From Trueperaceae bacterium (lineage in GTDB: Bacteria > Deinococcota > Deinococci > Deinococcales > Trueperaceae), in assembly GCA_965213925.1 (NCBI GenBank), contig OZ243927.1, positions 4,192,001 through 4,256,000 on the forward strand: DNA of 64,000 bases. Direction: 5' to 3'. Made by a program: the position numbers and the translations under genes. Below, in pieces: positions 27,315 through 53,831 of this stretch. A model generated the notes under the pieces. The model made no database searches. It saw nothing but the letters and a program-made list of their open reading frames with translations, and was not told where the DNA came from. Each line of letters begins with the position of its first letter. The stretch's first letter is position 1.

Positions 27315-28466
27315 TCACTCGCTTGGCGCGTAGTTCAGCGTGAGCGAGTCCGTCACAACCTCGTCGCTCGCCGTCGTTGCTTGCACCTCCAGACGGTTCT
27401 CCCCACGCTCCAGCCCCGACACTGTGAACATGAAGCGCCCGCTCGAGAAGGGTGCAGTGGTGAAGCCTTGGTCGTTAAGGCGGTAACGTAGCTCGCGCAC
27501 TTCGCTCCCTACGTTGCCACGCACCACCGTGCTGTCTGCGCTCAGCGTCGCGCCGTCTTCTGGGCTCGAGACCTCGATAGGGCTCGCCGCCTGGTCGCCG
27601 CTAAGCGGAACGCTGCTTAGTGGGTCCGTGGGCTGGGGGCTGCCGCCGGGGGGCTCCACGCTCAGATAGAGGGACGCGAAGCCTTCAGTGGACACCTGAA
27701 ATACGGTGCCCTGCGAAACCTCTAAAGAGGTCAATTGCTCACCGCTCTGCGGGCTCCAGTCGTCGCTGGTGTGTCCCCAGGCTTGATAAACGCGCCCGGC
27801 TGGGGGCGGCTCCGCAAGCACGAAGAGTGCGTCGCCAGGGCGCGTGAGCGCCGCGCCGAGGCGTGCATCGGCTTCGTCGTAGAGCGTCACGCTCTGCACG
27901 TTAGGCGCAGTGAGAAAGCGCGTGAGGAGGTCTTGCTCGGCTCTCACCTGTTCCAGCGCGAGCTGCGTGCGGTAACCTTGAAACAGCCCTGCACCCGCTA
28001 ACACGAGACACGCGGCGCACGCGGCGACAAGCCAGCGTGGAAGGCGGGGTGGGCGGTCCTGAATGACTTTGGGTAAAGAGGTTGAGGGCAAAGAGGTAGA
28101 GGGCGCTGCTTGGCGCGGAGCCGCAGGGATTGAGGGTGCGGGTAAAAGGGCCACCCTTTCTCCATCTTGTACAAAATCGGCATTGTCGGAGTCTCGAGCC
28201 TCACTCAGTCCCCCCGCCTGCTCAGTGGTCTCAGGTGTTTCAGCCCGCGCCTCGCCTTTGATGCGGCTCATTAGCCTAGCTTTCGCACCTTCAGGCGGCG
28301 CGACTTCGGGCAGCGCGTCCACCCAATCCGTCAAGACATTATCGAACTGACGCACCTCTTCGCGGCACGCTTCGCACTCCTTGAGGTGCGCCTCGACCGC
28401 CGCCGCCTCATCGGGGTCTAAGAGCCCCAAGGCGTAGTCGGGTAGCTGCGCTTTAGGGTGCTTCAT
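27315..28466 (-). CDS. anti-sigma factor (ZAS + TM + RskA-like) with extra C-terminal Ig-like domain
   Basis: YALGLL...HLKECEAC zinc motif, one TM, YQAW...SVEPPGGSPQPT, then an Ig-like tail; overlaps the sigma gene. Confidence 0.87.
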   Translation of the reverse strand: MKHPKAQLPDYALGLLDPDEAAAVEAHLKECEACREEVRQFDNVLTDWVDALPEVAPPEGAKARLMSRIKGEARAETPETTEQAGGLSEARDSDNADFVQDGERVALLPAPSIPAAPRQAAPSTSLPSTSLPKVIQDRPPRLPRWLVAACAACLVLAGAGLFQGYRTQLALEQVRAEQDLLTRFLTAPNVQSVTLYDEADARLGAALTRPGDALFVLAEPPPAGRVYQAWGHTSDDWSPQSGEQLTSLEVSQGTVFQVSTEGFASLYLSVEPPGGSPQPTDPLSSVPLSGDQAASPIEVSSPEDGATLSADSTVVRGNVGSEVRELRYRLNDQGFTTAPFSSGRFMFTVSGLERGENRLEVQATTASDEVVTDSLTLNYAPSE

Positions 28467-28995
28467 GATGCTCCATGACCTCTCGTAATTTGAGGAGTGC
28501 CCGTCTAATCTTACTCCGCACTGTGCCCAGCGGTTTTTCTTTAAGTTCGGCGATTTCCGCGTAGCTGTAGCCTAAGAAGTAGGCGTGCTCGAGGAGGTCG
28601 CGCTCCTCGTCGCTTAGGCGGGCTAAACCGCGCTCGAGCCAGAGCCGCGTCGTCACATCCGCCTCCGCCACCTCGAAAGGCACGCTCGGGTCATGAACGT
28701 CCCAGGCGTCCGCCTTGAGGGGTCGGGACTGCCGCTTGCGCAGCTTTGAAAGCGCCTCGTTACGCGCCAGCGTGTAGATAAACGCCCTCGGCGAACGCTC
28801 CCAGGTGTGATAGCCCGTCTTCATGTTGAAAAGTTTGTAAAAGGTCTCTTGCAAGACCTCTTCAGCCTCCTCACGGCTGCCGATAAGCTGAAACGCCAAG
28901 GTGAATACCTTGGTGCTCAAACGGTCATAAAGTTCACTTAGGGCTGCTTCGTCACCTTGAGAGACGCGGGCGAGCAGCGCGGCTTCGGGGTCCAT
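28453..28995 (-). CDS. ECF sigma factor (SigK-like)
   Basis: GDEAALSELYDR, AEEVLQETF, ARNEAL, SYAEIA...PLGTVRSKIRRAL. Confidence 0.93.
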   Translation of the reverse strand: MDPEAALLARVSQGDEAALSELYDRLSTKVFTLAFQLIGSREEAEEVLQETFYKLFNMKTGYHTWERSPRAFIYTLARNEALSKLRKRQSRPLKADAWDVHDPSVPFEVAEADVTTRLWLERGLARLSDEERDLLEHAYFLGYSYAEIAELKEKPLGTVRSKIRRALLKLREVMEHHEAP

Positions 28996-29373: not shown

Positions 29374-29976
29374 TTAACGGTCTACCAGGAGCGGCAGCGG
29401 GTCGATGACCTCTCGGTTACAGGTGCGCCTCGAGCCGCTATACACCCCGAAATGCAGGTGCGGCGGTGTAGTCGCAGCGTTACCGCTGTTGCCCACGAAA
29501 CCCAGCACCGTATCCGTCGTGACGTACATCCCCTCTGCGATATCCGCCCAGTCCTCTAGGTGCGCGTAGTAGTAGCGCCTGCCGCCCGCCCCGGCGACGA
29601 ACACGAGCTTACCGCCCAAGCTGCCTGTACCGATGCGGTAGATGTAGCCGGGCGTGGCGGCGTAAATCGGCGTGCCGCGCGGCGCGAAGATGTCCTGACC
29701 CTTGTGCGTTCTGCCGCCCCCTCTCGGTGCGCCCCACGTGTCCGCAACCTCGGCGACGCGCACGCCCGCGACGGGCATGAGGAGTTGCGCCACCGGCGTG
29801 TTCGGAAGCATCGCCTGGTACACCAAAAGCCGCTCGCGGTAGCGCTGGCGGCGGGCAGCCTCTTCGCGCTCTTCGGCGGTCTGCGGGACGGACGGCTGAT
29901 AGTCACAGGTTTGAGCAAGGGCGTGAGGGATGAACATGAGCAGAGTAACGGTGGCGAAAACAAGAGGTGTATTCAT
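29374..29976 (-). CDS. M23 family metallopeptidase
   Basis: HKGQDIFA, YAHL, HLHF motifs; signal peptide. Confidence 0.92.
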   Translation of the reverse strand: MNTPLVFATVTLLMFIPHALAQTCDYQPSVPQTAEEREEAARRQRYRERLLVYQAMLPNTPVAQLLMPVAGVRVAEVADTWGAPRGGGRTHKGQDIFAPRGTPIYAATPGYIYRIGTGSLGGKLVFVAGAGGRRYYYAHLEDWADIAEGMYVTTDTVLGFVGNSGNAATTPPHLHFGVYSGSRRTCNREVIDPLPLLVDR

Positions 29977-31298: not shown

Positions 31299-31580
31299 AT
31301 GGGCATTGAATACGCGCTGAAGCTGAGCAAGGTTGATAGAGACCGGCTTGACAGATTGCTCAGAACGCACCCTCAGTTTGCATCTTTTCTACCAGAGTTC
31401 GACCTTTATGAGTTCAGAGGGGTGGCGAATGCTGGTGGGATGCCGGACGCGGACGCAGCGTTGCAGGCTTATGGACTCTACTTCTGCGACAAGGGTGGAG
31501 AGGGTCAAAAGATTCTCGAGCGTCTTATCACCAAAATAGAAAACGAATATGGACAGGTCACGCTCGAAGATTTAGAGTAA
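31299..31580 (+). CDS. hypothetical protein
   Basis: 93-aa ORF with AGGA RBS, co-oriented with the GNAT gene. Confidence 0.6.
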   Translation: MGIEYALKLSKVDRDRLDRLLRTHPQFASFLPEFDLYEFRGVANAGGMPDADAALQAYGLYFCDKGGEGQKILERLITKIENEYGQVTLEDLE

Positions 31581-31589
31581 TTCCAAAAA

Positions 31590-31762
31590 ACCAAAAGGAA
31601 ACAGCCTCGAGACGATCTCGAGGCTGTCGGTGCCCGCCTGGTACTGAGGATAAACAACTCTTACGAAAGTCCCTCAGTCCGGGACATGGTCAGTTACCCT
31701 CGGCGGGTACCTCCACTGGTCATGTCATTTTGTAAAATTCGGACCACCTCCTTTCTGTGGTA
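31590..31762 (-). ncRNA. candidate structured small RNA with extended Shine-Dalgarno-like 5' end
   Basis: TATACT -10 (31768-31773), 5' AGAAAGGAGGTGGTCC, two stem-loops, terminator ACAGCCTCGAGA-tcg-TCTCGAGGCTGT-TTCCTTTT. Confidence 0.6.
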
Positions 31763-31881
31763 GGAAAAGTATACAACAGATTTTTAAGGCGTATGTGTAT
31801 TTCGCTACTAAAGGCGTGCAGACGGGGAGAACTCGTGTTCTTTCTCAGCGCATAAAGAGGTCAACTTCACCTACGCAAACT

Positions 31882-33021
31882 CTATAAAAACGCCGCCGCG
31901 TAGTCCCCGAAGCGGCGCTGAATATCTCTAGCGCTGAGCCCGAAGTCTTCCAAGCTGTACTTATGCTTGCCGTGCTTGTGCTGCGGATTCTCCCTGACGT
32001 AGCGCTCTAGCGAGTCGCTTAGCTCAGAGGTGTATTCAAGTTCGTAGTGCCCGTAAATCCCTTTGACGACCCCAACAGGGTCACTCACCAAGTCGGCGTA
32101 GCGGACGTCGTAGACGCGCCCCGGATGGCGCGCTCTCGCTCGCAAGTTTTGCTCAACCGTCGTCTCTAACAGGTCGAGGTTCGCCTGCGTGCCAGCGTCT
32201 CGTTCTAGGTCGTCCGTCCCGATCTGCCGCGTCTTGTGGTTCAAACTGCACCAGCTCGCGCATTGGTCTGCGGGGTCGCGGTGCGTCTGGACGATGAGGG
32301 CGTCGGGGACAACCTCTAAAAGGGCGTCCAGCGCGTCCGTGTGCGCGGGTTCTTTTAAGACTAAGCGCTTGTCGGGCTTGCGCCGCTGCAAGGCTCTAAG
32401 CATGTAGGCGTATTCCCGGTACTTCTCTCGCCTGTCTTGCGCCCTGTACCACTCGAGATACCCATACACCGAAGCCACATCCCAGAAGAGCACGCTCTCA
32501 AAGGTCATGCTCAACATGTGGCGGCACTCTTCGGGCAGGTCGGCTTCGACGTGGTGAGCGGCGCTAATTTCAGACCAGCCGAGCAAATCTAGGAATTCAT
32601 TTGCCCTTTGCTCTCTGCGCGCGGGCGTGTCTTGGCTGCCTCTAGGCAGCGGCGAGACGACCTCCCAAAAGGGCGCGGCGCGGTGGCGCGAATCCGACGC
32701 GAGGAGCCTATGCAGATGCGTCGTACCGGTGCGCGGCAAACCGATCACGATAAGGGGTGGTCGTAGAGATTCGGCGAAACGTTCGGGCAACCCCTTCTGC
32801 GCGTGAATGAAGGTGAGACGGTTCTCTAAAGCGTTCAAGACCAGACGGCTCAAAACCATCTCGCCGTAAGCGTTGAGGTCCGCGTCCTTTCGGACCGACG
32901 AGAGAAGCTTTTCTAAACCCACGCGGTAGTAGCTAGAGCCGAAGTCAGCGACGCCTATGCGCGCTGCGGCGGCAGCTTCTAAAGCGTCTATCTCTAAACT
33001 CAGCTTTGCACCTTCGATCAT
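31882..33021 (-). CDS. sulfotransferase family protein
   Basis: PAPS loop GLPRTGTTHLHRLL, LVLKEPAH, QTHRDP. Confidence 0.9.
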   Translation of the reverse strand: MIEGAKLSLEIDALEAAAAARIGVADFGSSYYRVGLEKLLSSVRKDADLNAYGEMVLSRLVLNALENRLTFIHAQKGLPERFAESLRPPLIVIGLPRTGTTHLHRLLASDSRHRAAPFWEVVSPLPRGSQDTPARREQRANEFLDLLGWSEISAAHHVEADLPEECRHMLSMTFESVLFWDVASVYGYLEWYRAQDRREKYREYAYMLRALQRRKPDKRLVLKEPAHTDALDALLEVVPDALIVQTHRDPADQCASWCSLNHKTRQIGTDDLERDAGTQANLDLLETTVEQNLRARARHPGRVYDVRYADLVSDPVGVVKGIYGHYELEYTSELSDSLERYVRENPQHKHGKHKYSLEDFGLSARDIQRRFGDYAAAFL

Positions 33022-33136: not shown

Positions 33137-33706
33137 TCAATTCGACGCGACGATGTAGACCTTTTCCATCTTGTCGGGCTGCGCGCCCCCTGGTCGGGTC
33201 GGGTCTACGCGGGTCAACTCGTCTAAGACCTCGAGCCCCTCGACTACTTTTCCAAAGACCGCGTGCCTGCCGTTTAAGTGCGGCGTCGGTCCGAAGGTGA
33301 TAAAGAACTGCGAGCCGTTGGTGTTGGGCCCGGCGTTCGCCATCGAGAGCGTGCCCTTCTCGTCGTGCTCGAGGTCCGAGTCGAACTCATCTTCGAAGCG
33401 GTAGCCCGGACCGCCGCGCCCCGTGCCCGTCGGGTCGCCGGTTTGCGCCATGAAATCCTCTAACACGCGGTGAAAGACGACGCCGTCGTAGAAGTGATTG
33501 CGCGCCAAGAAGACGAAGTTGTTGACGGTTTTAGGCGTTTCATCCTGAAAGAGGTCGACGACGATGCGCCCTTTACTCGTTTCGATGACAGCCTGGTAGT
33601 CGTGACCCTCTTCTAAGACCTCTTCGGCGTGATCGAATTCGGTTTTACGACCTTCGTTTAGCGGCTCTAAAATTTCGTAGCCTTCGGGTGAGTAGCGGTT
33701 TTCCAT
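33137..33706 (-). CDS. cyclophilin-type peptidyl-prolyl isomerase (cytoplasmic)
   Basis: [34 protein letters not shown]. Confidence 0.95.
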
Positions 33707-33829: not shown

Positions 33830-34891
33830 TTAGTTGCCCTCAGCCGGACGCTGAATGATCGTTACAGTTTCCATCACGTCGGGCTTGGGGAAAAACCCTA
33901 TCACAGTATCTTGCCCGCTGCGCCCGATGACACCTGTGTAGCCCGCAATCTGAAAGGTCTGTCCAAAGGCGGGCATCGCGCCGAGCGTCTCAGAAAGGGC
34001 GGCTTCGGCGCTCATGTCGGGCGTACCGGGAATGTTGATGCCTTGGGCGCTCAAGTCAGCGAGCTTGATGTCTAAAGGAACCACCACTTCCGGGTTTTGC
34101 GGGTTGATGCGCTGGATATTGTCTAGCACGTCGATCCCTTCGGTGACGTTCCCAAAAACGGTGTACTCTCCGTTCAGGTGCGGCGCTCCCGTCAAGGTGA
34201 TGAAGAACTGCGAGCCGTTCGAGTCGGGGTCGGCGGTGCGCGCCATACCCAACACGCCCGCCTCGTCAAAGCCTAAGTCCTCTTGCACCTCTAAGCCGAA
34301 TTCGTAGCCGGGACCACCCGTGCCCGTGCCCGTCGGGTCGCCCGTCTGCGCCATAAAGTCCTCCAGGACGCGGTGGAAGACGACGCCGTCGTAGTAGCGG
34401 TTGCGCGCCAAGAAGATGAAGTTGTTGACGGTTTCGGGCGTTCTATCCTCGTACAAGTCGGCGATGAGCGTGCCCTCGTTCGTTTGGATGACGGCGGCGT
34501 AGTCGGTGTTCTCCTCTAAAACCTCTTGCGGCTCGGCGAAGGTGCGCTGCTGCTCGTTGGAGAGATACGGTGTGAGGGTGTAGCCTTCCGGGATTTCGAC
34601 TTGCGTGCCGCTGGAGACCTCGCTCGAGCCTCCCGTTGCCTCTCCGCCGGTCATAGCCCCGCCGGTCATGTCTCCACCAGTCACCACGCCACCCGTAGCT
34701 TCACTGTCAACGTCAGCTTGCGCGCCGCCTGTCTGTACCTCACTGGACTCGGCGCTTGTCTCAGTCGCCTCGCTCGAGTCTTGGTTTGTGCCGCTTGAGG
34801 CGGATACCCCCGACCCCGGCTGCACGAAAAGCCAGATACCCACGGATATAAGGAGTACGGCGGCTAAAGCGAGTAAAAGCGTTCGGTTCAT
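33830..34891 (-). CDS. membrane-anchored cyclophilin-type peptidyl-prolyl isomerase
   Basis: N-terminal TM, TGG-repeat linker, [24 protein letters not shown]. Confidence 0.93.
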   Translation of the reverse strand: MNRTLLLALAAVLLISVGIWLFVQPGSGVSASSGTNQDSSEATETSAESSEVQTGGAQADVDSEATGGVVTGGDMTGGAMTGGEATGGSSEVSSGTQVEIPEGYTLTPYLSNEQQRTFAEPQEVLEENTDYAAVIQTNEGTLIADLYEDRTPETVNNFIFLARNRYYDGVVFHRVLEDFMAQTGDPTGTGTGGPGYEFGLEVQEDLGFDEAGVLGMARTADPDSNGSQFFITLTGAPHLNGEYTVFGNVTEGIDVLDNIQRINPQNPEVVVPLDIKLADLSAQGINIPGTPDMSAEAALSETLGAMPAFGQTFQIAGYTGVIGRSGQDTVIGFFPKPDVMETVTIIQRPAEGN

Positions 34892-38633: not shown

Positions 38634-40057
38634 TTCCTTTGGACGTTTACGGTGACGTTGATGGTGACAAACCCCGCGAAGAGTGCGGCGTCTTCGCCGT
38701 GCACCTCCCTGAACCTGCAGATATCGCCGCGCTCTGCCATCTAGGGGTTTTCGCCCTCCAACATAGAGGTCAGGAGTCGTGCGGCATCTGCGTGTCGAAC
38801 GGTGAGGACATCGTCATCGAGAAGGACATGGGGCTCGTCGCGGAGGTCTTTACCGAGGAGCGTATCGAGAAGTTGCGCCTACCCAACATGCGTACGGGCA
38901 TCGGTCACACGCGCTACTCCACGACAGGCTCATCCTTACGCTTCAACGCCCAACCGCTGACGGTGCGCTCGAACAAAGGGCTCTTAGCGCTCGCTCATAA
39001 CGGCAACTTCACCAATGCTAAAGCGATTCGCGTTGAGATGCTGGGCAACGGCGCAGTCTTTCAAACCACCAACGACAGTGAAGTCATGATCAACCTCATC
39101 GCCCGCTACAGCCAACTCTCCTTAGAGGACGCCACCGCGCAGGTGATGAGCGAACTCGAGGGTGGCTTCGCCGTCGTCATCATGGACAAGACCAAGATCA
39201 TCGGGCTGCGCGACGCCAACGGGGTGCGACCTCTCGTCATTGGCGGATTAGAGGGCGGCTACGTCTTCGCCTCGGAGGTTTCTGCTCTCCATGTCATTGG
39301 CGCGTCATACCTGCGCGACGTGAAACCGGGCGAACTCGTCGTGGCGGATGACGCGGGCTTGCACTCGAGGCAAGTTTTAGAGCCTATCCCGACCCCCTGC
39401 GCCTTTGAGTGGATTTACTTTGCGAGAGGGGATGGGACGTTGGACGGGGCGGACGTGCACGCCTCGAGAATCCGCATGGGCGAAGTTTTAGCGGAAGAAT
39501 CTCCGACCGACGCCGACGTGATTGTTGGCGTGCCCGAGTCCGGCTTACCTGCTGCGATTGGGTACGCAAGGGCCTCGGGTATCCCCTTCGACTTAGGGCT
39601 TTATAAATCCCCTTACGCCGGGCGCACCTTCATCAACCCTACCCAAAGGCTGCGCGATCTCAAAGTCAAGCTCAAGCTCGCGCCCACCGCCGCTGTTAAG
39701 GGCAAGCGCGTCGTCTTAGTTGACGACTCCATCGTGCGCGGCACGACCTCGGGGCGCATCGTGCAGCTTCTCCGGGACGCCGGAGCTAAAGAGGTTCACT
39801 TTCGCGTCTCCTCGCCACCCATTAAATACCCCTGTTACTACGGCATCGACACGGCGGCGCGTAAAGAACTCGCGGCGGCGACGATGAGTGTGGAGGAAAT
39901 CTGTGAGCGCATCGGGGCGGATTCGCTCTCCTTTATCTCCGAAGCGGGGCTTTCAAAGGCGATTGGGCTGACGCGGACCTGTTTAGCTTGTTTTGATGGA
40001 GCGTATCCGGCGGGGGTGCCGGAGGAGGAGCAAGAGGAGAGTTTGGTGGCGGTTTGA
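38630..40057 (+). CDS. purF: amidophosphoribosyltransferase
   Basis: EECGVF, LQHRGQE, GHTRYST, VDDSIVRGTT. Confidence 0.97.
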   Translation: MIPLDVYGDVDGDKPREECGVFAVHLPEPADIAALCHLGVFALQHRGQESCGICVSNGEDIVIEKDMGLVAEVFTEERIEKLRLPNMRTGIGHTRYSTTGSSLRFNAQPLTVRSNKGLLALAHNGNFTNAKAIRVEMLGNGAVFQTTNDSEVMINLIARYSQLSLEDATAQVMSELEGGFAVVIMDKTKIIGLRDANGVRPLVIGGLEGGYVFASEVSALHVIGASYLRDVKPGELVVADDAGLHSRQVLEPIPTPCAFEWIYFARGDGTLDGADVHASRIRMGEVLAEESPTDADVIVGVPESGLPAAIGYARASGIPFDLGLYKSPYAGRTFINPTQRLRDLKVKLKLAPTAAVKGKRVVLVDDSIVRGTTSGRIVQLLRDAGAKEVHFRVSSPPIKYPCYYGIDTAARKELAAATMSVEEICERIGADSLSFISEAGLSKAIGLTRTCLACFDGAYPAGVPEEEQEESLVAV

Positions 40058-40063
40058 AGGCTG

Positions 40064-41611
40064 CTAACTCTCCATCCTCAAATTGTAGAATATTTCTAGT
40101 TGGGTTTTAACTTTCTCTCTTAGGTCATTCGTGTCATCTGCCGTTAGAACCTGAAATGACTTGATGTTGAAACCCACGTCCTTTGAGAAATCGCTGCCCG
40201 AAATTGACTTGTTGTGAACCAGTATAAAGTTGTCTTGGCTCAAGCCAGCCCCTTTATTGGCACCCATTAGGTAGCCGATTTCATGATAGACATTTTTGTT
40301 TCCGAGAGAGAGGTCAGCAATAAGTAAGCCGCTGTCGTAAATTAGTTGCAGTATCTCACTATCAATCTCGTAAGAATGCCCTTTAAGATACTCATCAATT
40401 CGTATCTCCCGAAGTTCCAGGTCGAGCTTATGCTCCGTGTTTACGTCATTGACAGCATTCATGATTGCTGTATGGTTCGACTTCGTTTCGGAGCTAAACT
40501 GCATTGAAACGAAAATGGTTCTTTTCTTCGCCTCGAGCACACAATTGAAGATTTTGATGAGTTCTTTAGCGTCGGTGTTTTTGGTTTGATAAAGATGATT
40601 TTTGAGCACCCAGTTTGTAAAAACATTCAAGGTCAACTTAGATTTGAAAGCGTAGTAGATGAACGCAGTGAGTAGCCCCTCGTTAGGGTTCCGATAGAGT
40701 CTTTCGTCGCTATAAATTTCGTTGACCGCAGCCAAATGTTTCTTGAAAACATCCAGCTCATCACCTACCTGTAATAAACCACCGTCTAGCAGAAGTTGAA
40801 ACGAGTTGAGCAGGAAGGTGCGCTTAATGCACGCGCTCTCCTGTGGGTCAAGCACTGCCTTAATGTTTTGCAACATTGATAAATTCCAGCTCAGCAGCAT
40901 CTTTCGCGCTAAGACGTAAGATTCACCGAAGGATTTTCTGAGAACATCGTCAGAGAAAAGCGCTTCGTCTTCGAGAATCAGTTTAAGGCTTTGCTCCATC
41001 GTCAGGGCGATTTGGCGAAAGTTGATGTTGTGAAATAGTGCCCGGCTATACCTCTTCAACTCATCGTCTGACCGAAAAAGAACTAAGCAAAACGGCACGT
41101 TGTAGTTGCTGAACTTCTGACGTAACTCTTCGTCTAAACTGTCGCCATGATTCGTGAGAACGCTTAAACGGTGATTGCCGTCTATACGGTGAAACTTGGA
41201 GAAGTTGCTACTCTCCTCGAGCAGCGCATCATCAATCATCAGCCTTGTCCTTCGAAAGTAAATCTTTGAGCGCAATTCGTTAGGGCTTGAACGGCTTGTG
41301 ATGTAGTCCCTGAGCGTGAACTCAGTAAATTCATGTTTTGCGCCTTTGTCACCCTGCAGCGCTAAAATAAAGTCATTTACTCCGCCCAGATTACTACCGT
41401 CATCTAGGCTTGCTCCTAAGATGACCTCGGGAAAGAAAAGGAAACGCTCCTCATTCAAAAAATCAATCATCTCCTGACGATGCTCCGTAATCAGGTCGCG
41501 CTGATAGCTCTCGTCAGGCGCTGAGATTTTGTCCAAATCCCCCAATGACGCAAAGCCGCGCAAGCAGATGAAGTTACCCAGCGAGTTATCTAAGACCCCT
41601 TCTAAAATCAC
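40064..41611 (-). CDS. DGQHR/DndB-like domain fused to C-terminal nucleoside 2-deoxyribosyltransferase/TIR-like domain
   Basis: N-term YQRDL, FFPEVIL, RIDGNHRL, FHNINFRQ; C-term IFVSMQF, RIDE, IADLS..NKNVYHEIGY. Confidence 0.75.
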   Translation of the reverse strand: MILEGVLDNSLGNFICLRGFASLGDLDKISAPDESYQRDLITEHRQEMIDFLNEERFLFFPEVILGASLDDGSNLGGVNDFILALQGDKGAKHEFTEFTLRDYITSRSSPNELRSKIYFRRTRLMIDDALLEESSNFSKFHRIDGNHRLSVLTNHGDSLDEELRQKFSNYNVPFCLVLFRSDDELKRYSRALFHNINFRQIALTMEQSLKLILEDEALFSDDVLRKSFGESYVLARKMLLSWNLSMLQNIKAVLDPQESACIKRTFLLNSFQLLLDGGLLQVGDELDVFKKHLAAVNEIYSDERLYRNPNEGLLTAFIYYAFKSKLTLNVFTNWVLKNHLYQTKNTDAKELIKIFNCVLEAKKRTIFVSMQFSSETKSNHTAIMNAVNDVNTEHKLDLELREIRIDEYLKGHSYEIDSEILQLIYDSGLLIADLSLGNKNVYHEIGYLMGANKGAGLSQDNFILVHNKSISGSDFSKDVGFNIKSFQVLTADDTNDLREKVKTQLEIFYNLRMES

Positions 41612-43044
41612 GCCGCCTCACCTAAGATCATGGCTTCAACTTCACGCTTAGCTTGCTCTAAAGTATTACTTGCTTCGCCTCGTAACTGCTTTGCCTTGAG
41701 TCTAATTGAAGCTATCTCTTGCGCAATAGTTTGCTGTTCCATAAGAGAGGGTAAAGGAATATTTACCTGCGCAAGCGCATCATTGTTGACACCCGATTGG
41801 TTGTTCCAGTTTGTGCAAATTTTGAAGAAAACTTTTCGCCGCTGATACATATTGAGCAAAGCTGTCAGGTAACGAGGTGAAACTACGTTCTCATTGAGAC
41901 TAATGCGCGTGATGTGATTGGAGCAGAAATAATCACCGTCTAAGTCAAATAGTACAGTTTTTCCCACCAGCTCTTGACTGTTAGTGTTGTTGAAAAGCAC
42001 CTCATTTCGTCTCAGTAAATCGTTTTCATGATGTTCTTTTTGCACGTAGTCAATTAGTACGTTCTTTTCAAATATTAACTCTCTCGCGGGACTGATGTTT
42101 GTAGGACGTATCTGAACAATGCCTTCAGATTGCCTTGCCTGGTCTTGCTTCCCGGCAGCAAAGCCCGTCTGAAGGTGTTGTACAACGTCTTTCAATCGCT
42201 CCATAGGATAAGTCGAGCCTTCAAGCATCTTATAAACACCTTGCGTATGAAATAGCGGGTCTAATCTACTACCCGTAACATCGCTGAGTTTCCGGTAAAA
42301 GACTCGATTCTGCAAATCGTTTTTTTCCTCGAGCGGCTTTTCGATACCTAGAGCCTCGAGCAGGTAATCATCTATCCCATCTAAAAGCTGCTGAGCGGCG
42401 GCTTCTTTTTGTTTTTTCAACTCGTAGGCAGCGTTAATCTTAGCTACTACATTCTCTTGTACCTCTTTTGATGGCAAAGGGATAGGTAGACTTTTATATT
42501 CTTCTGCGTTTATGTTTGGCTGTCCTGCTGCACGTTGCACTGCTTGAACCCACTTCTGATATACGCCAAGCTGAGTGAATGCAAAGAGGTAGTCTGGGCT
42601 TATCAGCTCAGAATTCACAACGAGACGAATCATATAACCAGCAAAAAAACATGGGTAGTCAACTGATTCAGTTTTATGTATGTACGCTTTGCCTACTGTG
42701 GCACCACTCCGAGCGAACAGAAGATCGTTGTTTTCGAGTAGATACTGATCTTCTATAACGTCTGCTGTAACACCAACTTCGTTTCTCAAAAGACCATATT
42801 CATCAACATCCGTAATCCTGATATATCTCGGTTCGTCTAAACTCAATCTTTCTTTCCCCGGCTCATTGGCTCCATACTGAGGTTTCTTCTGTAAAAGCGT
42901 CCCGAGTTTTCTGGGCTCGAACTTGTAGTGCGTAATAGTTCTGTTGTATAGAACCATTAAAGGGTCAAATCTAGCTTGAAGCTCGCTGAGATTAGCTATA
43001 AAAATTTTCGGCTCGTCTGTACTTATTGAAAGCTCAAAACTCAC
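41608..43044 (-). CDS. hsdS: restriction-modification specificity subunit (HsdS-like, two TRDs)
   Basis: RFDP/RLDP, YIRITD, DLLFARSGATVGK, QPNIN...PIPLPSKEVQ, then a second TRD with NIPLPSLMEQQTI. Confidence 0.9.
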   Translation of the reverse strand: MSFELSISTDEPKIFIANLSELQARFDPLMVLYNRTITHYKFEPRKLGTLLQKKPQYGANEPGKERLSLDEPRYIRITDVDEYGLLRNEVGVTADVIEDQYLLENNDLLFARSGATVGKAYIHKTESVDYPCFFAGYMIRLVVNSELISPDYLFAFTQLGVYQKWVQAVQRAAGQPNINAEEYKSLPIPLPSKEVQENVVAKINAAYELKKQKEAAAQQLLDGIDDYLLEALGIEKPLEEKNDLQNRVFYRKLSDVTGSRLDPLFHTQGVYKMLEGSTYPMERLKDVVQHLQTGFAAGKQDQARQSEGIVQIRPTNISPARELIFEKNVLIDYVQKEHHENDLLRRNEVLFNNTNSQELVGKTVLFDLDGDYFCSNHITRISLNENVVSPRYLTALLNMYQRRKVFFKICTNWNNQSGVNNDALAQVNIPLPSLMEQQTIAQEIASIRLKAKQLRGEASNTLEQAKREVEAMILGEAA

Positions 43045-45173
43045 GCTTGCCCCTGCTCAACAGCCCGAATGAACCTGCTCAACTCCTCACCTATCGCCCC
43101 AAGCTCACTGTTATGCGTCTCTTTACCCGTCGCGTCATAACCGATGTCTTCGGCTATCGCCATGAGTATCGGGTAATCGTCTAAGACCTCTTGTTTGCGC
43201 TCGTCGTAGCTTTCTAGTAGCTCTTCTTTTAGCGCATCTACCTGCTGCCTGTAATATTCGCTCACCTCTTTGCGCCAGTCCTTGTAAGCTTGGTTGTCGC
43301 GTAACGCCTTGCCGCTCAAATCTTGCGCGTTGTCAAAGCCGCGCAGCTCGGCGAGGTGCTGCTTTTTCGCGTCGTCAATCTCTTGTAATCGTTGCAAATA
43401 GTCGTGGTCAGTGAGGATGTCACTCTGCAGGGAGGCTTTTTGCTGTTTGATGCGTTCGGTGGCCGCCTCGTCGTGCTTTCTCAGGAAAAGCACGGAGCTT
43501 TTGACGCCTGCGCCCGTCGCGGTAAAGGCGGTCTGGGGCATACTGACAACGGCTACGACGCGGTACATCTCTTCGATATTGTCGCGTACGTATTGGAGGC
43601 TCGAGTTCGTCAGGATGCCGTCGGGCACGACCATTGCTAAGTAACCGCCCGCTTTTAAGAAGTTGTGACACTGTTCTATAAAGAGAACTTCGGTGCTTTG
43701 GTTGGGGCGCTCGCTGCGCTTGCTCTTGGGGTCGAGCCAGCTCCCTTCTTTGTAGGCAAAGCCGTAGTTGCCCATGTAAGCCTGCTCGGTTTGTTTAACA
43801 ACGGAGCCAAAAGGCGGATTGGTGATGACAAAGTCAAAGGTCCCGTAGGTGAAGCCTTGATTTTTAGTACGGTTGTAGATGTCCTCACCGCTGATGAGCC
43901 CGTCTGCTGCGATGACGTTGGTGTGTCCGTCGTCGTGAATGATCATGTTCATCTTAGCAACCCTAGCGATTTGCTCGTTGATTTCAATACCGAAGAGGTT
44001 TTTCTCGGCGAACGTGTGCCAATGTCGGTAGTGATTTCTACCTTCAGGCGTTTTCTCGTCTCCGATTTCATTAGGGTAGTAATCATCTGCTTCACGTCTT
44101 ACTTTGTCTAGCGCATGAAGTAAAAAACCACCACTACCGCAGGAGGTGTCTAATACTTTTGACGTATGAGTTATAGGTAGCACATCAACAATGAACCTAA
44201 CAATAGGGCGTGGTGTGAAGTACTGTCCAAAATCTCCCCTGAAAAATGACCCCATAAATGTTTCAAAGGCTCGCCCTTTGCTATCTAAGTCAGTTTCTCC
44301 TAAATTTACACTCTGTAAGTACCCCACGACTGTACGTAATTTGTCAGCGCTCAAACGTATGTCTTCCTTAAAGACCTCAGTGTCCCTCTTGCGACCTTCT
44401 TGGTAAAGGGATTCAATCCGTTTAAGTAGCTCTTGATTTGTCTTCCCCTCAGTGTCTTCTTGAAAAATTTGGAACTTATAGGGCTCACCTGATTTACAGT
44501 TTCGCTCATCCCAGATTTTGCAGAAGATGAGTTTATCTAGCTCATCAAAGGCTGACGAAGGGTTGAGTTCGCCGCCACCCCATAAAGCTTGATGTGCTTG
44601 CTTGAAGCACCTAGTTAATTCACCTTCTTCAACCACTTCTAAGTCAAAAAACCTTTGACCGTTCGGAGTTGTACCACCACCCTTGACGTATTTGTACTTC
44701 GCAATATTGGTGACACCGTACTGGGGAATGTCAGGGATGGTCAGACGGTCTTTAGGCTTCTTTTTGGGGACTTCGTAGTAAACATCTTTGATTCCTGACG
44801 TAACCCACACGTACCTAGCGCCCTCAGCTACGGCGTAGCTAAACGCTTGTTCAACGGCTTGCTTGAACTCGAGTTCTGAAACGTCTTCCTTTTTGCACTC
44901 CACAACGATATGAGGAGAAAGGTGCTGGTCATCGTTGTAGACGATGATGTCGGCTTCGCGTTGGCTCGAGCCCATCGTCACGCTCACGAAAGAGCGTATC
45001 CTGTTAGGCGAATATCCGTAGGTGAGAATAAGCTTTAAGAAGGTTTCTGCTTGTACCTTCTCTTCCGGGTTAGCGTAGTTGCGGCGTCTGTTCTCATTCA
45101 GATAAACAACGTTTTTCTTGTCGTTGTCAATTAGAATAAAATTTTGCTTCACACCGTGTTCTATTAGGTTCAT
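43041..45173 (-). CDS. fused HsdR_N-type nuclease / N6-adenine DNA methyltransferase (type IIB/IIG-like RM subunit)
   Basis: PEEKVQ, ADIIVY...VECKK nuclease motif; GQYFTPR, LDTSCGSGGFL, NPPF. Confidence 0.9.
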   Translation of the reverse strand: MNLIEHGVKQNFILIDNDKKNVVYLNENRRRNYANPEEKVQAETFLKLILTYGYSPNRIRSFVSVTMGSSQREADIIVYNDDQHLSPHIVVECKKEDVSELEFKQAVEQAFSYAVAEGARYVWVTSGIKDVYYEVPKKKPKDRLTIPDIPQYGVTNIAKYKYVKGGGTTPNGQRFFDLEVVEEGELTRCFKQAHQALWGGGELNPSSAFDELDKLIFCKIWDERNCKSGEPYKFQIFQEDTEGKTNQELLKRIESLYQEGRKRDTEVFKEDIRLSADKLRTVVGYLQSVNLGETDLDSKGRAFETFMGSFFRGDFGQYFTPRPIVRFIVDVLPITHTSKVLDTSCGSGGFLLHALDKVRREADDYYPNEIGDEKTPEGRNHYRHWHTFAEKNLFGIEINEQIARVAKMNMIIHDDGHTNVIAADGLISGEDIYNRTKNQGFTYGTFDFVITNPPFGSVVKQTEQAYMGNYGFAYKEGSWLDPKSKRSERPNQSTEVLFIEQCHNFLKAGGYLAMVVPDGILTNSSLQYVRDNIEEMYRVVAVVSMPQTAFTATGAGVKSSVLFLRKHDEAATERIKQQKASLQSDILTDHDYLQRLQEIDDAKKQHLAELRGFDNAQDLSGKALRDNQAYKDWRKEVSEYYRQQVDALKEELLESYDERKQEVLDDYPILMAIAEDIGYDATGKETHNSELGAIGEELSRFIRAVEQGQA

Positions 45174-52303: not shown

Positions 52304-52908
52304 TACAAATCAATGATCGTTTTTAGGAAGGGTACTCGAGCGTAAAAGGCTCTCGTCGTACTTCCGTGCCCTGTCCCCTTCGTTCTAGGTTGTATATACT
52401 TGCCCATTTTCCCGCTTAACTTGTCAAAGCCTTCTTCTGTGATTACTTTTCTGACTAAATCATAGTCTGCTTTCACTTGTGCGTATACTTCAGGATCATC
52501 GAGGTCAAAAGTGTGAATGCCGTAGAGAGTAGAGGTTGGCTCATCTACGCTTTCCCAAATTCTCGAAGCTATGAGTCCCTTTTGCATCTTTGCTAATAAG
52601 TGGCTCTTTTCAAAAGGGGTATTGCGGACATTGTAAGCATCAATTTTCGTAATGGACAATGTTTCCTTGACGGTCAAAGTGCCTGATTTGAGATACTTTA
52701 ACGAAGCAGTTTTCAGCTCCCAGGAGCCAAAATTCGGAGATTGAGCCGAGTTTAGCGGAAGCCCTAAATAACGTTCGATAACATGTCCCGCCCAACCCTT
52801 ATTCTTTTTTCCCTCTTTGAACACAGTGACCTCGTATTTCTCAGCCATTGCTCTCAAATCTCTACCCTTGATCTTGTCAAGCAACACTATTGCTTCTTCC
52901 CGCTCCAC
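52303..52908 (-). CDS. MutH/Sau3AI-like endonuclease, single domain
   Basis: KNKGWAGHVIERYLG, WELKT, KYIQPRTKG, RAFY. Confidence 0.82.
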   Translation of the reverse strand: MEREEAIVLLDKIKGRDLRAMAEKYEVTVFKEGKKNKGWAGHVIERYLGLPLNSAQSPNFGSWELKTASLKYLKSGTLTVKETLSITKIDAYNVRNTPFEKSHLLAKMQKGLIASRIWESVDEPTSTLYGIHTFDLDDPEVYAQVKADYDLVRKVITEEGFDKLSGKMGKYIQPRTKGTGHGSTTRAFYARVPFLKTIIDL

Positions 52909-53831
52909 TAAAACCGCTCTCCAAAATTCGCGATTAGCAGTTCAGATAGTTTCCCTCGACCGGACGCTTTGGAATTGATAGCTCTATTTGCCATAACCCG
53001 TGATACGTTATGATTCGAATACAAGCTATCAAAAAATTCATCTTGGGTCTCTTGAGTTTTCACATCTGAGTTGCTAAGCAGCCATTTGCAGCCTTTTGCG
53101 TCCAAGAGGTCGCAGAATTCTTTCAAGCGCACTTGCTCACTGTCGTTAAAGACTCCATGAGAGTAAGCGTTGAAACTAGAGGTCTTGCTAATAGGTTTAT
53201 ACGGAGGATCAAGATAAACGAAGGTTTCTTCAGTCACATGCTCTAAGACAATTTCATAGTCCCCATGTAGTATCTCTACGTTTTGCAACCGCTCATGAAC
53301 AATAAGCAAGTTGGTTTCGTCGCAAATTGTTGGATTCTTGTAGCTACCTATAGGAACATTGAACATATTTTTTCTATTGACTCTGTAAAGTCCATTGAAG
53401 CAAGTCTTATTGAGGAAAATAAACAACGCTGCTTGCGTAGTGTTATCAGAGGTGCGCGAATTGTATAACTCTCGTTGTGAGTAATAAAATTTGCTTCGTT
53501 CTTTAGGTTTTTCCGAAAGCGTATCGTACAGCTTCTGCCACTTTTTTAGCGGCTCGATAACTGCATCAACATCCTGAGCGATACACCTGTAGGTGTTGAT
53601 TAAGTCGGCGTTTATGTCGTTAATAACAACGTTTCTAACATTTGGGTAGTTGTTGAGTATCCAAAATAAAACTGAACCTCCGCCAACGAACGGTTCAATA
53701 TACGTGAAGCTTGCTTGATGAGAATATGGCATTCTGCGAGCGATAGCGTCTAAAAGTTGCGTCTTCCCGCCTGCCCATTTCAAAAAGGGTTTTGCGTTAG
53801 CAAAAAGATTGAGCATGTTGCAACTTACCAT
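52908..53831 (-). CDS. Dam/DpnM-like DNA adenine methyltransferase
   Basis: [26 protein letters not shown]...FNVP, YLDPPY. Confidence 0.93.

Follow-up and report, generated by a model that had tools for sequence, protein, structure and literature searches.

A reduced, divergent relative of the actinobacterial RNA Ms_IGR-5 in a Trueperaceae genome, with a 16S-tail complement and a conserved mini-ORF

We analysed 64,000 nucleotides (nt) of the genome of a Trueperaceae bacterium (GenBank assembly GCA_965213925.1, contig OZ243927.1, positions 4,192,001 to 4,256,000; this whole stretch is called the window below). The subject is a small RNA gene on its minus strand, whose predicted transcript begins with a near-perfect complement of the 3′ tail of 16S rRNA. 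Family identity and fold can be stated with high confidence. The RNA belongs, in reduced and divergent form, to a widespread group of RNAs that carry a very short open reading frame (mini-ORF) led by a Shine-Dalgarno (SD) sequence, and the actinobacterial core of this family is Ms_IGR-5. A first-pass annotation had described a stand-alone structured RNA at 31590-31773 and had recognized no named family in it. That interval runs from promoter through terminator, and the RNA proper occupies ~31761-31590.

Results

Relationship to Ms_IGR-5

At curated cut-offs, Rfam gave no match in the 64 kb. A permissive scan aligned RF02471 (Ms_IGR-5) over its full length to 31761-31595 (model positions 1-184; 29.3 bits, cut-off 45; E = 6.3×10−5). 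RF01867 (CC2171) was also aligned over its full length (19.9 bits, cut-off 75; E = 0.041), and the consensus sequences of both families begin ..GAAGGAGGUG.

We searched for relatives by a genome scan with the 17-mer of the window followed by a gap and GAGGT, which gave at least 118 loci. The listed relatives comprise 116 loci from Actinomycetota (Actinomycetes, Thermoleophilia, Acidimicrobiia, Gaiellales and others) and two from metagenome-assembled genomes (MAGs) of Terriglobales; the matches listed do not extend to the genome of the window or to other Deinococcota. When 20 of the loci were scanned with Rfam, 12 scored above the Ms_IGR-5 cut-off (52-157 bits), three scored ~30 bits and five gave nothing at E ≤ 0.01. 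From this split we conclude that the Rfam model captures only the core of a broader family.

A covariance model, R1, was built from 66 of the relatives (alignment A2, described below) with the window excluded. It found the window RNA at 31763-31625 over the full model length (48.1 bits, E = 2.9×10−9), and the next-best site in the window scored 10 bits. All 51 hold-out loci were matched as well (28.7-91.4 bits). The nearest listed relatives are a Gaiellales-type group and locus L095, of which the window RNA is a shortened version without the P2 insert. The Infernal, Rfam and covariance-model check thus returned homologues with four helices supported by covariation, and the earlier remark that no named family was recognized needs correction: the RNA is related to Ms_IGR-5 through a full-length, sub-threshold alignment, and its relatives connect it with members that exceed the cut-off.

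The host belongs to the Deinococcota, outside the Actinobacteria that the Rfam family description gives as the range of Ms_IGR-5. PurL encoded in the window is 72% identical to proteins of Truepera sp. MAGs and 65-67% identical to those of Deinococcus species. Our literature searches, which covered Ms_IGR-5, CC2171, Deinococcus small RNAs (sRNAs) with a small ORF and sRNAs sequestering the anti-SD, found no functional study of this RNA; no occurrence of the 15-mer AAGGAGGTGGTCCGA was found in the literature text searched.

The mini-ORF is conserved as a frame

The first-pass annotation had pointed out two candidate reading frames. One of them, starting with ATT 8 nt after GGAGG and ending with TAA, is homologous to the conserved mini-ORF of the family, which has 10-17 codons. 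The other, ATG-ACA-TGA, is present at 31727-31719 and lies out of frame with the conserved ORF.

We counted starts and stops over 119 sequences, that is, the 118 listed loci and the window. In 101 of them GGAGG is followed at a spacing of 7-13 nt by an ATG, GTG or TTG that shares its frame with the conserved stop, as against only 1 and 10 for the other two frames. Sixteen of the remaining 18 sequences, including the window, have ATT, ATC, ATA or CTG at a spacing of 8. The stop codon is TAG in 100 sequences, TGA in 11 and TAA in eight, and its distance after the second GAGG is 10 or 11 nt in the 118 listed loci and 13 nt in the window. Frame-0 stops are absent from the variable loop of all 102 distinct sequences, where 23 are expected from shuffles; the other frames have 8 and 58.

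The peptides themselves are dissimilar (...TREVAAR, ...GTLEVSGR and ...GSGGTSG among relatives; ...TSGGTRRG in the window). Codons 2-5 vary freely, and subfamilies differ in how they read the invariant GGAGGU, as GAG-GUG or as GGA-GGU. On this comparison, the ORF is conserved as a frame and not as a peptide. Because the peptide is unconserved and the frame of GGAGGU differs by subfamily, selection would appear to act on translation and on the RNA, not on the product.

Two SD sequences, one of them within a long 16S-tail complement

The complement of the 16S tail seen in the first pass, AGAAAGGAGGTGGTCC, proved to be a conserved hallmark of the 5′ element. It is the sole site in the 64 kb with at most one mismatch to the canonical 16S-tail complement; at up to three mismatches there are two sites, with 0.51 expected. 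It lies 7 nt from the predicted 5′ end of the RNA. The canonical 16S 3′ tail used for this matching is a sequence that we take as given rather than one read from this genome, and the Rfam scan at curated cut-offs found no rRNA in the window.

In the modelled family consensus, GAAAGGAGGUG (SD1) forms an 11-nt single-stranded SD bulge between helices H1 and H2, and the GUCC of AGAAAGGAGGTGGTCC is the 5′ strand of H2. The second SD-like sequence (SD2) is split between helices H1 and P1.

A four-helix fold supported by covariation

The alignments support four predicted helices, H1, H2, P1 and P2, in the family; H1, P1 and P2 are common to the window RNA as well, which in the model register forms H2 only in part. 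Alignment A2 comprises 66 of 102 distinct 5′ domains, namely those of at most 145 nt. Fifteen loci with ambiguous P1 3′ ends had been set aside before; in 16 loci the second-best P1 site was chosen by eye, and one of these, L020, was dropped since its site proved wrong. The 3′ partner of P1 was located by requiring a GGU:ACC end. An unconstrained duplex search for P1 against shuffled strands yielded no information on RNAs as GC-rich as these (median z = -0.85), and a lenient pairing search gave many spurious sites. RNAalifold applied to A2 revealed H1. A MAFFT alignment (A1) that joined the 20 nearest relatives to the window misplaced the 3′ half of the window because the relatives have a large P2 insert, and its RNAalifold structure was not used.

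With the four-helix structure, 91.9% of the cells in A2 are paired, compared with 30-39% when the partners are slid. Cells with changes on both sides number 158 versus 68 in shuffles, and none of 500 shuffles reached 158. The hold-out alignment A3 gave similar figures (90.9% paired; 32-51% when slid). The window itself forms 20 of the 23 pairs of model R1.

H1 is formed by the 5′ leader and the bases that immediately precede the second GGAGG. In A2, three of its four pairs change on both sides and 99.2% of the cells are paired, with variants such as CCAG:CUGG, CACG:CGUG and CACU:AGUG next to CCAC:GUGG in the window. In the family, H2 (GUCC:GGAC) closes the loop that contains the start codon. 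P1 changes on both sides at five of nine pairs in A2; compensatory examples are GGUGGCUGC with GCAGUCACC, GGUGUCCGUC with GACGGACACC, GGUACCAGCGG with CCGCUGGUAACC and GGUGCUGGGG with CCCCGGUACC, and their counterpart in the window is GGUACCCGCC with GGCGGGCACC. In the model register the window forms eight of nine P1 pairs (GGUACCCGC:GCGGGCACC). A pairing of GGTACCCGCC with GGCGGGCACC had been listed earlier as a mere alternative, and is instead this conserved, covariation-supported helix. The family stop codon sits in the 5′ strand of P2; in the window TAA begins at the last base of that strand.

Beyond these helices, the loop GGAC of a putative inner hairpin in the window is complementary to the 5′ GUCC, and the nearest listed relatives have a comparable hairpin with a GGACC loop. 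For the ORF segment of the window, the best 3′ pairing site reaches only -3.5 kcal/mol. Many actinobacterial members have a hairpin with a GUCC(C) loop 21-26 nt after the P1 3′ strand. In those members the loop is complementary to GGAC/GGGAC of the ORF, the 3′ strand of H2, and a fifth pair sometimes matches too (GGGAC:GUCCC, AGGAC:GUCCU, UGGAC:GUCCA). This arrangement suggests a pseudoknot that might compete with H2 and so free the full 16-nt 16S complement.

The RNA gene and its surroundings

The RNA is, as far as its signals can be read, an independent, self-contained gene with its own predicted promoter and terminator (Table 1). The -10 element TATACT and the strong terminator, a 13-bp stem followed by a T-run, were found where the first pass had put them. 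A TANNNT motif lies at -18 or -19 from GAAAGG in 91 of the 119 sequences (at -18 in the window), and an A lies at -6 in 108. From this fixed spacing and the A at -6 we infer that the RNA starts ~6 nt 5′ of GAAAGG, which in the window is the A at ~31761. A generic sigma-70 scan made no call at the TATACT site. The arms of the terminator have a duplex energy of -24.5 kcal/mol, and the fold of the RNA (-71.5 kcal/mol, z = -4.67) is more stable than that of any of 200 shuffles.

On one side the locus is flanked by a same-strand sulfotransferase gene ending at 31882. On the other side is a convergent ORF of 93 codons without a Pfam match (31299-31580, plus strand), which ends ~10 nt away from the predicted 3′ terminus of the RNA. 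The view that the RNA stands alone, followed by no normal gene, agrees with this layout. No second copy of the element was found within the 64-kb window, and a blastn search of plasmids gave three short chance matches within coding genes (E ≥ 0.1).

Neighbouring genes depend on the lineage: gyrA in Thermoleophilia, an O-methyltransferase gene in the Gaiellales type, and ABC transporter, photolyase or PNPOx genes in Nocardioides. Among the listed loci, no neighbour was found that is common to several classes. In Thermoleophilia, gyrA adjoins the RNA gene either upstream (loci L005, L013, L027, L047, L050, L058, L067 and L080) or downstream (L003, L007 and L070), and an HNH endonuclease gene often flanks the other side (L005, L009, L027 and L058). 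This gyrA synteny is confined to the Thermoleophilia lineage and is not common to other classes.

Table 1. Positions of the predicted RNA and its parts in the window
Feature	Position	Strand	Details
Predicted RNA, whole	~31761-31590	minus	~170 nt; ends inferred from R1, the Ms_IGR-5 alignment and the terminator
-10 element TATACT	31773-31768	minus	Read directly
H1 5′ strand CCAC	31760-31757	minus	Pairs with GUGG 31716-31713, 4/4 pairs
16S-tail complement AGAAAGGAGGTGGTCC	31756-31741	minus	15/16 match to complement of 16S 3′ tail
Mini-ORF ATT TTA CAA AAT GAC ATG ACC AGT GGA GGT ACC CGC CGA GGG TAA	31738-31694	minus	14 codons + stop
GUGGAGG	31716-31710	minus	H1 3′ strand and second SD-like GGAGG (SD2)
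P1 5′ strand GGUACCCGCC	31711-31702	minus	Pairs with 31638-31629
P2 5′ strand GAGGGU	31701-31696	minus	Pairs with AUCCUC 31651-31646, 6/6 pairs
Inner hairpin GUCCC-GGACUGA-GGGAC	31685-31669	minus	Read directly
P2 3′ strand AUCCUC	31651-31646	minus	Overlaps CCTCAGT of a stem in the first-pass annotation
P1 3′ strand GGCGGGCACC	31638-31629	minus	Ends in conserved anti-SD-like CACC directly before terminator
Intrinsic terminator	31585-31628	minus	13-bp stem 31628-31600, 7 G-C pairs, 3-nt loop, T-rich tail

Discussion

Our findings are consistent with a sequence of events in which docking of the ribosome, translation of the mini-ORF and remodelling of the fold are linked; taken as a whole, we give this reading an even chance. 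A 30S subunit would dock on the SD1 bulge through the 3′ tail of its 16S rRNA, and extension of the duplex into GUCC may open H2. Initiation would follow at the codon 8 nt downstream, AUU in the window. By translating 14 codons, the ribosome would melt H2, H1, P1 and P2. When it reaches the stop codon, the second GGAGG would lie 13 nt upstream, could pair with the anti-SD of the same ribosome and may hold the terminating ribosome there. The act of translation, not the peptide, would matter. Ribosome loading would then set the state of the RNA, whether family fold, unfolded, or a rival fold with CACC paired to the first SD, and the state or stability of the RNA would thus report initiation capacity. 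Within this reading, real initiation or translation is the part that the conserved start and frame make rather probable; remodelling by translation as the function is a tentative proposal.

Three sets of published data bear on this reading. Ribosome footprints on Ms_IGR-5 homologues in M. abscessus and M. smegmatis are described in PMC4974804. PMC8079986 and PMC8780764 list the Ms_IGR-5 RNA as an expressed sRNA unit in Streptomyces. In S. aureus, extended SD sequences drive AUU and AUA starts, according to PMC13009471.

Several observations weigh against docking, translation and remodelling as we propose them, or limit how far the comparisons reach. Conservation of the 17-mer and of GAGGT cannot be read from our set because the retrieval required those bases, and related sequences are not independent counts. 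Two of the 119 sequences have no start of any kind, and AUU in the window is a weak start codon. Accessibility in the family favours SD1 only slightly (unpaired 0.52 versus 0.36 for SD2, in 77 of 102 sequences), and in the window SD1 is less accessible than SD2 (0.48 versus 0.89 unpaired). H2 forms only two of four pairs of the model register in the window; a shifted GGUC:GACC could give it four. The 3′ domain hairpin with a GUCC loop, which is present in most relatives, was not found in the window, where a plain terminator follows P1. For this organism the case is built from sequence, the expression data and footprints having been obtained in other organisms, and none of the family members has a known target downstream or a known phenotype.

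The rival fold of the window is a further point on that side. The minimum-energy fold of the 5′ domain has -42.3 kcal/mol, compared with -40.1 to -40.7 kcal/mol for the family fold, and its stem GACAUG:CAUGUC has a pair probability of 0.85 versus ~0.09 for H1 and P1. The stems listed in the first-pass annotation are all present (GACATG/CATGTC at 31726-21 and 31688-83, minus strand, together with TACCC/GGGTA and ACTGAGG/CCTCAGT). They belong to this rival fold, for which there is no comparative support here, and not to the family fold. The rival fold combines them with pairing of CACC to GGUG of the first SD, so that CACC is paired in both folds of the window. The two folds are mutually exclusive and lie within ~2 kcal/mol of each other, which fits the switch that had been suggested for this RNA.

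The same features can be explained in other ways. The RNA might be a non-translated, STAB-SD-like element that binds 30S subunits, either blocking 5′-to-3′ decay by RNase J or titrating the subunits, with the ORF merely tolerated. The STAB-SD element binds 30S near the 5′ end without directing translation and blocks RNase J1, as stated in PMC4113751. We regard this explanation as doubtful, although complementarity of 16 nt goes far beyond the needs of initiation, it lies 7 nt from the predicted 5′ end, and 16 of the 119 sequences, the window among them, have only near-cognate starts and two have none. A pure docking site needs neither in-frame starts in 101 of 119 sequences nor a variable loop free of frame-0 stops in all 102, and it explains neither the helices nor why the stop codon lies where it does. 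The first-pass annotation had proposed 30S binding or sequestration; a purely sequestering role is not borne out, and genuine initiation is indicated by a start codon and an uninterrupted frame that are both conserved. It is also unlikely that the RNA is a base-pairing sRNA whose candidate seed, the CACC strand or the junction (GAAUCCA in relatives, GUACCA in the window), is aimed at ribosome-binding sites of mRNAs. Its internal SD copies would then be auto-inhibitory, and the mini-ORF would unmask the seed. CACC and the preceding junction are conserved, P1 and H1 jointly pair with SD2 like a split anti-SD, and the 3′ domain of relatives has C-rich GUCC or CCUCC loops; the window lacks these 3′ domain loops, and its CACC is base-paired in both folds.

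Two further explanations make the peptide or a neighbouring gene the target. A micro-protein gene with the 14-residue peptide as its product would agree with the start, the uninterrupted frame and the stop that are conserved here. The lack of peptide conservation, the free codons 2-5 and the subfamily-dependent frame of GGAGGU make such a gene very improbable, and the micro-peptide suggested in the first pass is accordingly not expected to function as a peptide. The order of promoter, SD, ~14 codons, alternative folds and terminator resembles that of a leader-peptide transcription attenuator, and sRNAs derived from attenuators exist, for instance rnTrpL/peTrpL (PMC7968998). An attenuator or another cis-regulatory leader of a neighbouring gene is nevertheless scarcely credible at this locus. 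The next downstream ORF is convergent, flanking genes vary between lineages, and the mini-ORF has no repeated regulatory codons. The best upstream partner of the 5′ arm of the terminator reaches -12.0 kcal/mol, compared with -10.8 ± 2.1 kcal/mol for shuffled arms. Set against the -24.5 kcal/mol of the terminator arms, this partner does not make an antiterminator, and none was found in the window RNA.

Until now Ms_IGR-5 has figured in the lists as an sRNA of Actinobacteria to which no function is assigned. The same design, a 5′ complement of the 16S tail, a tiny ORF conserved as a frame and a fold with covariation in which an internal anti-SD mimic clamps a second SD, is now found in the Deinococcota, and two MAGs of Terriglobales have it as well according to the motif scan. 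Retention of such features across these distances makes the RNA a strong candidate for direct interplay between RNA and ribosome, and its small size suits quick testing. The boldest form of this idea, which we consider improbable, is an ancient ribosome-engaging RNA across Actinomycetota, Deinococcota, Acidobacteriota and, via CC2171, perhaps Alphaproteobacteria, which would be neither an mRNA nor a base-pairing sRNA but would have the ribosome itself as its target. In it, the invariant bulge at the 5′ end would pair with the entire single-stranded 3′ tail of 16S rRNA, and a split anti-SD mimic, formed by the leader CC and CACC, would be clamped on the second SD. Such an RNA might park or titrate 30S or 70S ribosomes, for example with one ribosome at SD1 and a terminating one at SD2. 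Alternatively, it might serve to report on the condition of the 16S 3′ end or to check it.

Comparison with known RNAs

Three features are common to Ms_IGR-5 and the window RNA: AAGGAGGUGGUCCGA at the 5′ end, another GAGGU exactly 25 nt further on, and a CACC that precedes the terminal hairpin. The window RNA differs from it in scoring below the cut-off, in its deinococcotal host, in its AUU start and in a plain terminator without the GUCC-loop 3′ domain. H1 and P1 are missing from the Rfam consensus structure of Ms_IGR-5. The first helix that Rfam does give (GGUGGU:GCUGCC) was rejected, being 79.7% paired versus 74.7% at slide -3 and thus indistinguishable from slid controls. These results suggest that both the Rfam model and the consensus structure of Ms_IGR-5 are too narrow.

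CC2171, a Caulobacter and alphaproteobacterial sRNA, resembles the window RNA in a 5′ GAAAGGAGGUG, CCAGUG, a terminal hairpin and the full-length alignment. In Methylorubrum it is a northern-validated stand-alone sRNA, according to a preprint (bioRxiv 10.1101/2022.01.24.477521). At 19.9 bits against a cut-off of 75 (E = 0.041) kinship is too weak to call, and none of the 20 scanned family loci matched CC2171 at E ≤ 0.01. By eye, its gapped consensus has GUG ~7 nt after GGAGG and ~22 apparently open codons to UAA. The alphaproteobacterial CC2171 may therefore also be an SD-led mini-ORF RNA.

The 5′ element of the window RNA resembles the STAB-SD of Bacillus thuringiensis cry3A mRNA, which is likewise SD-like, lies close to the 5′ terminus of its RNA and pairs with the 3′ end of 16S rRNA but does not serve a normal gene (PMC4113751). 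STAB-SD differs in lying in the 5′ untranslated region of a long mRNA and in having neither a conserved mini-ORF nor a covarying fold. The leader-peptide attenuator RNA rnTrpL/peTrpL, which acts in trans, and the dual-function sRNAs SgrS/SgrT, RNAIII/hld and SR1/SR1P are similar to the window RNA in being small terminated transcripts with an SD and a very short ORF in a regulatory structure. Compared with such leader-attenuators and dual-function sRNAs, the window RNA is without a downstream operon, an antiterminator and a conserved peptide.

Other features of the window

A low-GC stretch at 40001-44000 (0.46, versus ~0.57-0.59 elsewhere) contains a restriction-modification cluster with ORFs at 40064-41611, 41608-43044 and 43041-45173, all on the minus strand. 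Its members are an N6 DNA methylase with an HSDR_N domain, a type I specificity protein (HsdS-like) and a 515-amino-acid protein without a Pfam match. Horizontal acquisition as a defence island is probable for this cluster. GC is lowered (0.51) in another stretch too, which carries a gene for a D12-class (Dam-like) N6-adenine DNA methyltransferase (52908-53831, minus strand).

At 27315-28995 on the minus strand, an ECF sigma factor gene overlaps an anti-sigma factor gene (zf-HC2 and RskA_C domains), and an M23 peptidase gene lies near this pair at 29374-29976. Two genes for cyclophilin-type peptidyl-prolyl isomerases are arranged in tandem on the minus strand (33137-33706 and 33830-34891); at its N terminus, the product of the second is extended by a long segment of low complexity that is enriched in T, G, S and E.

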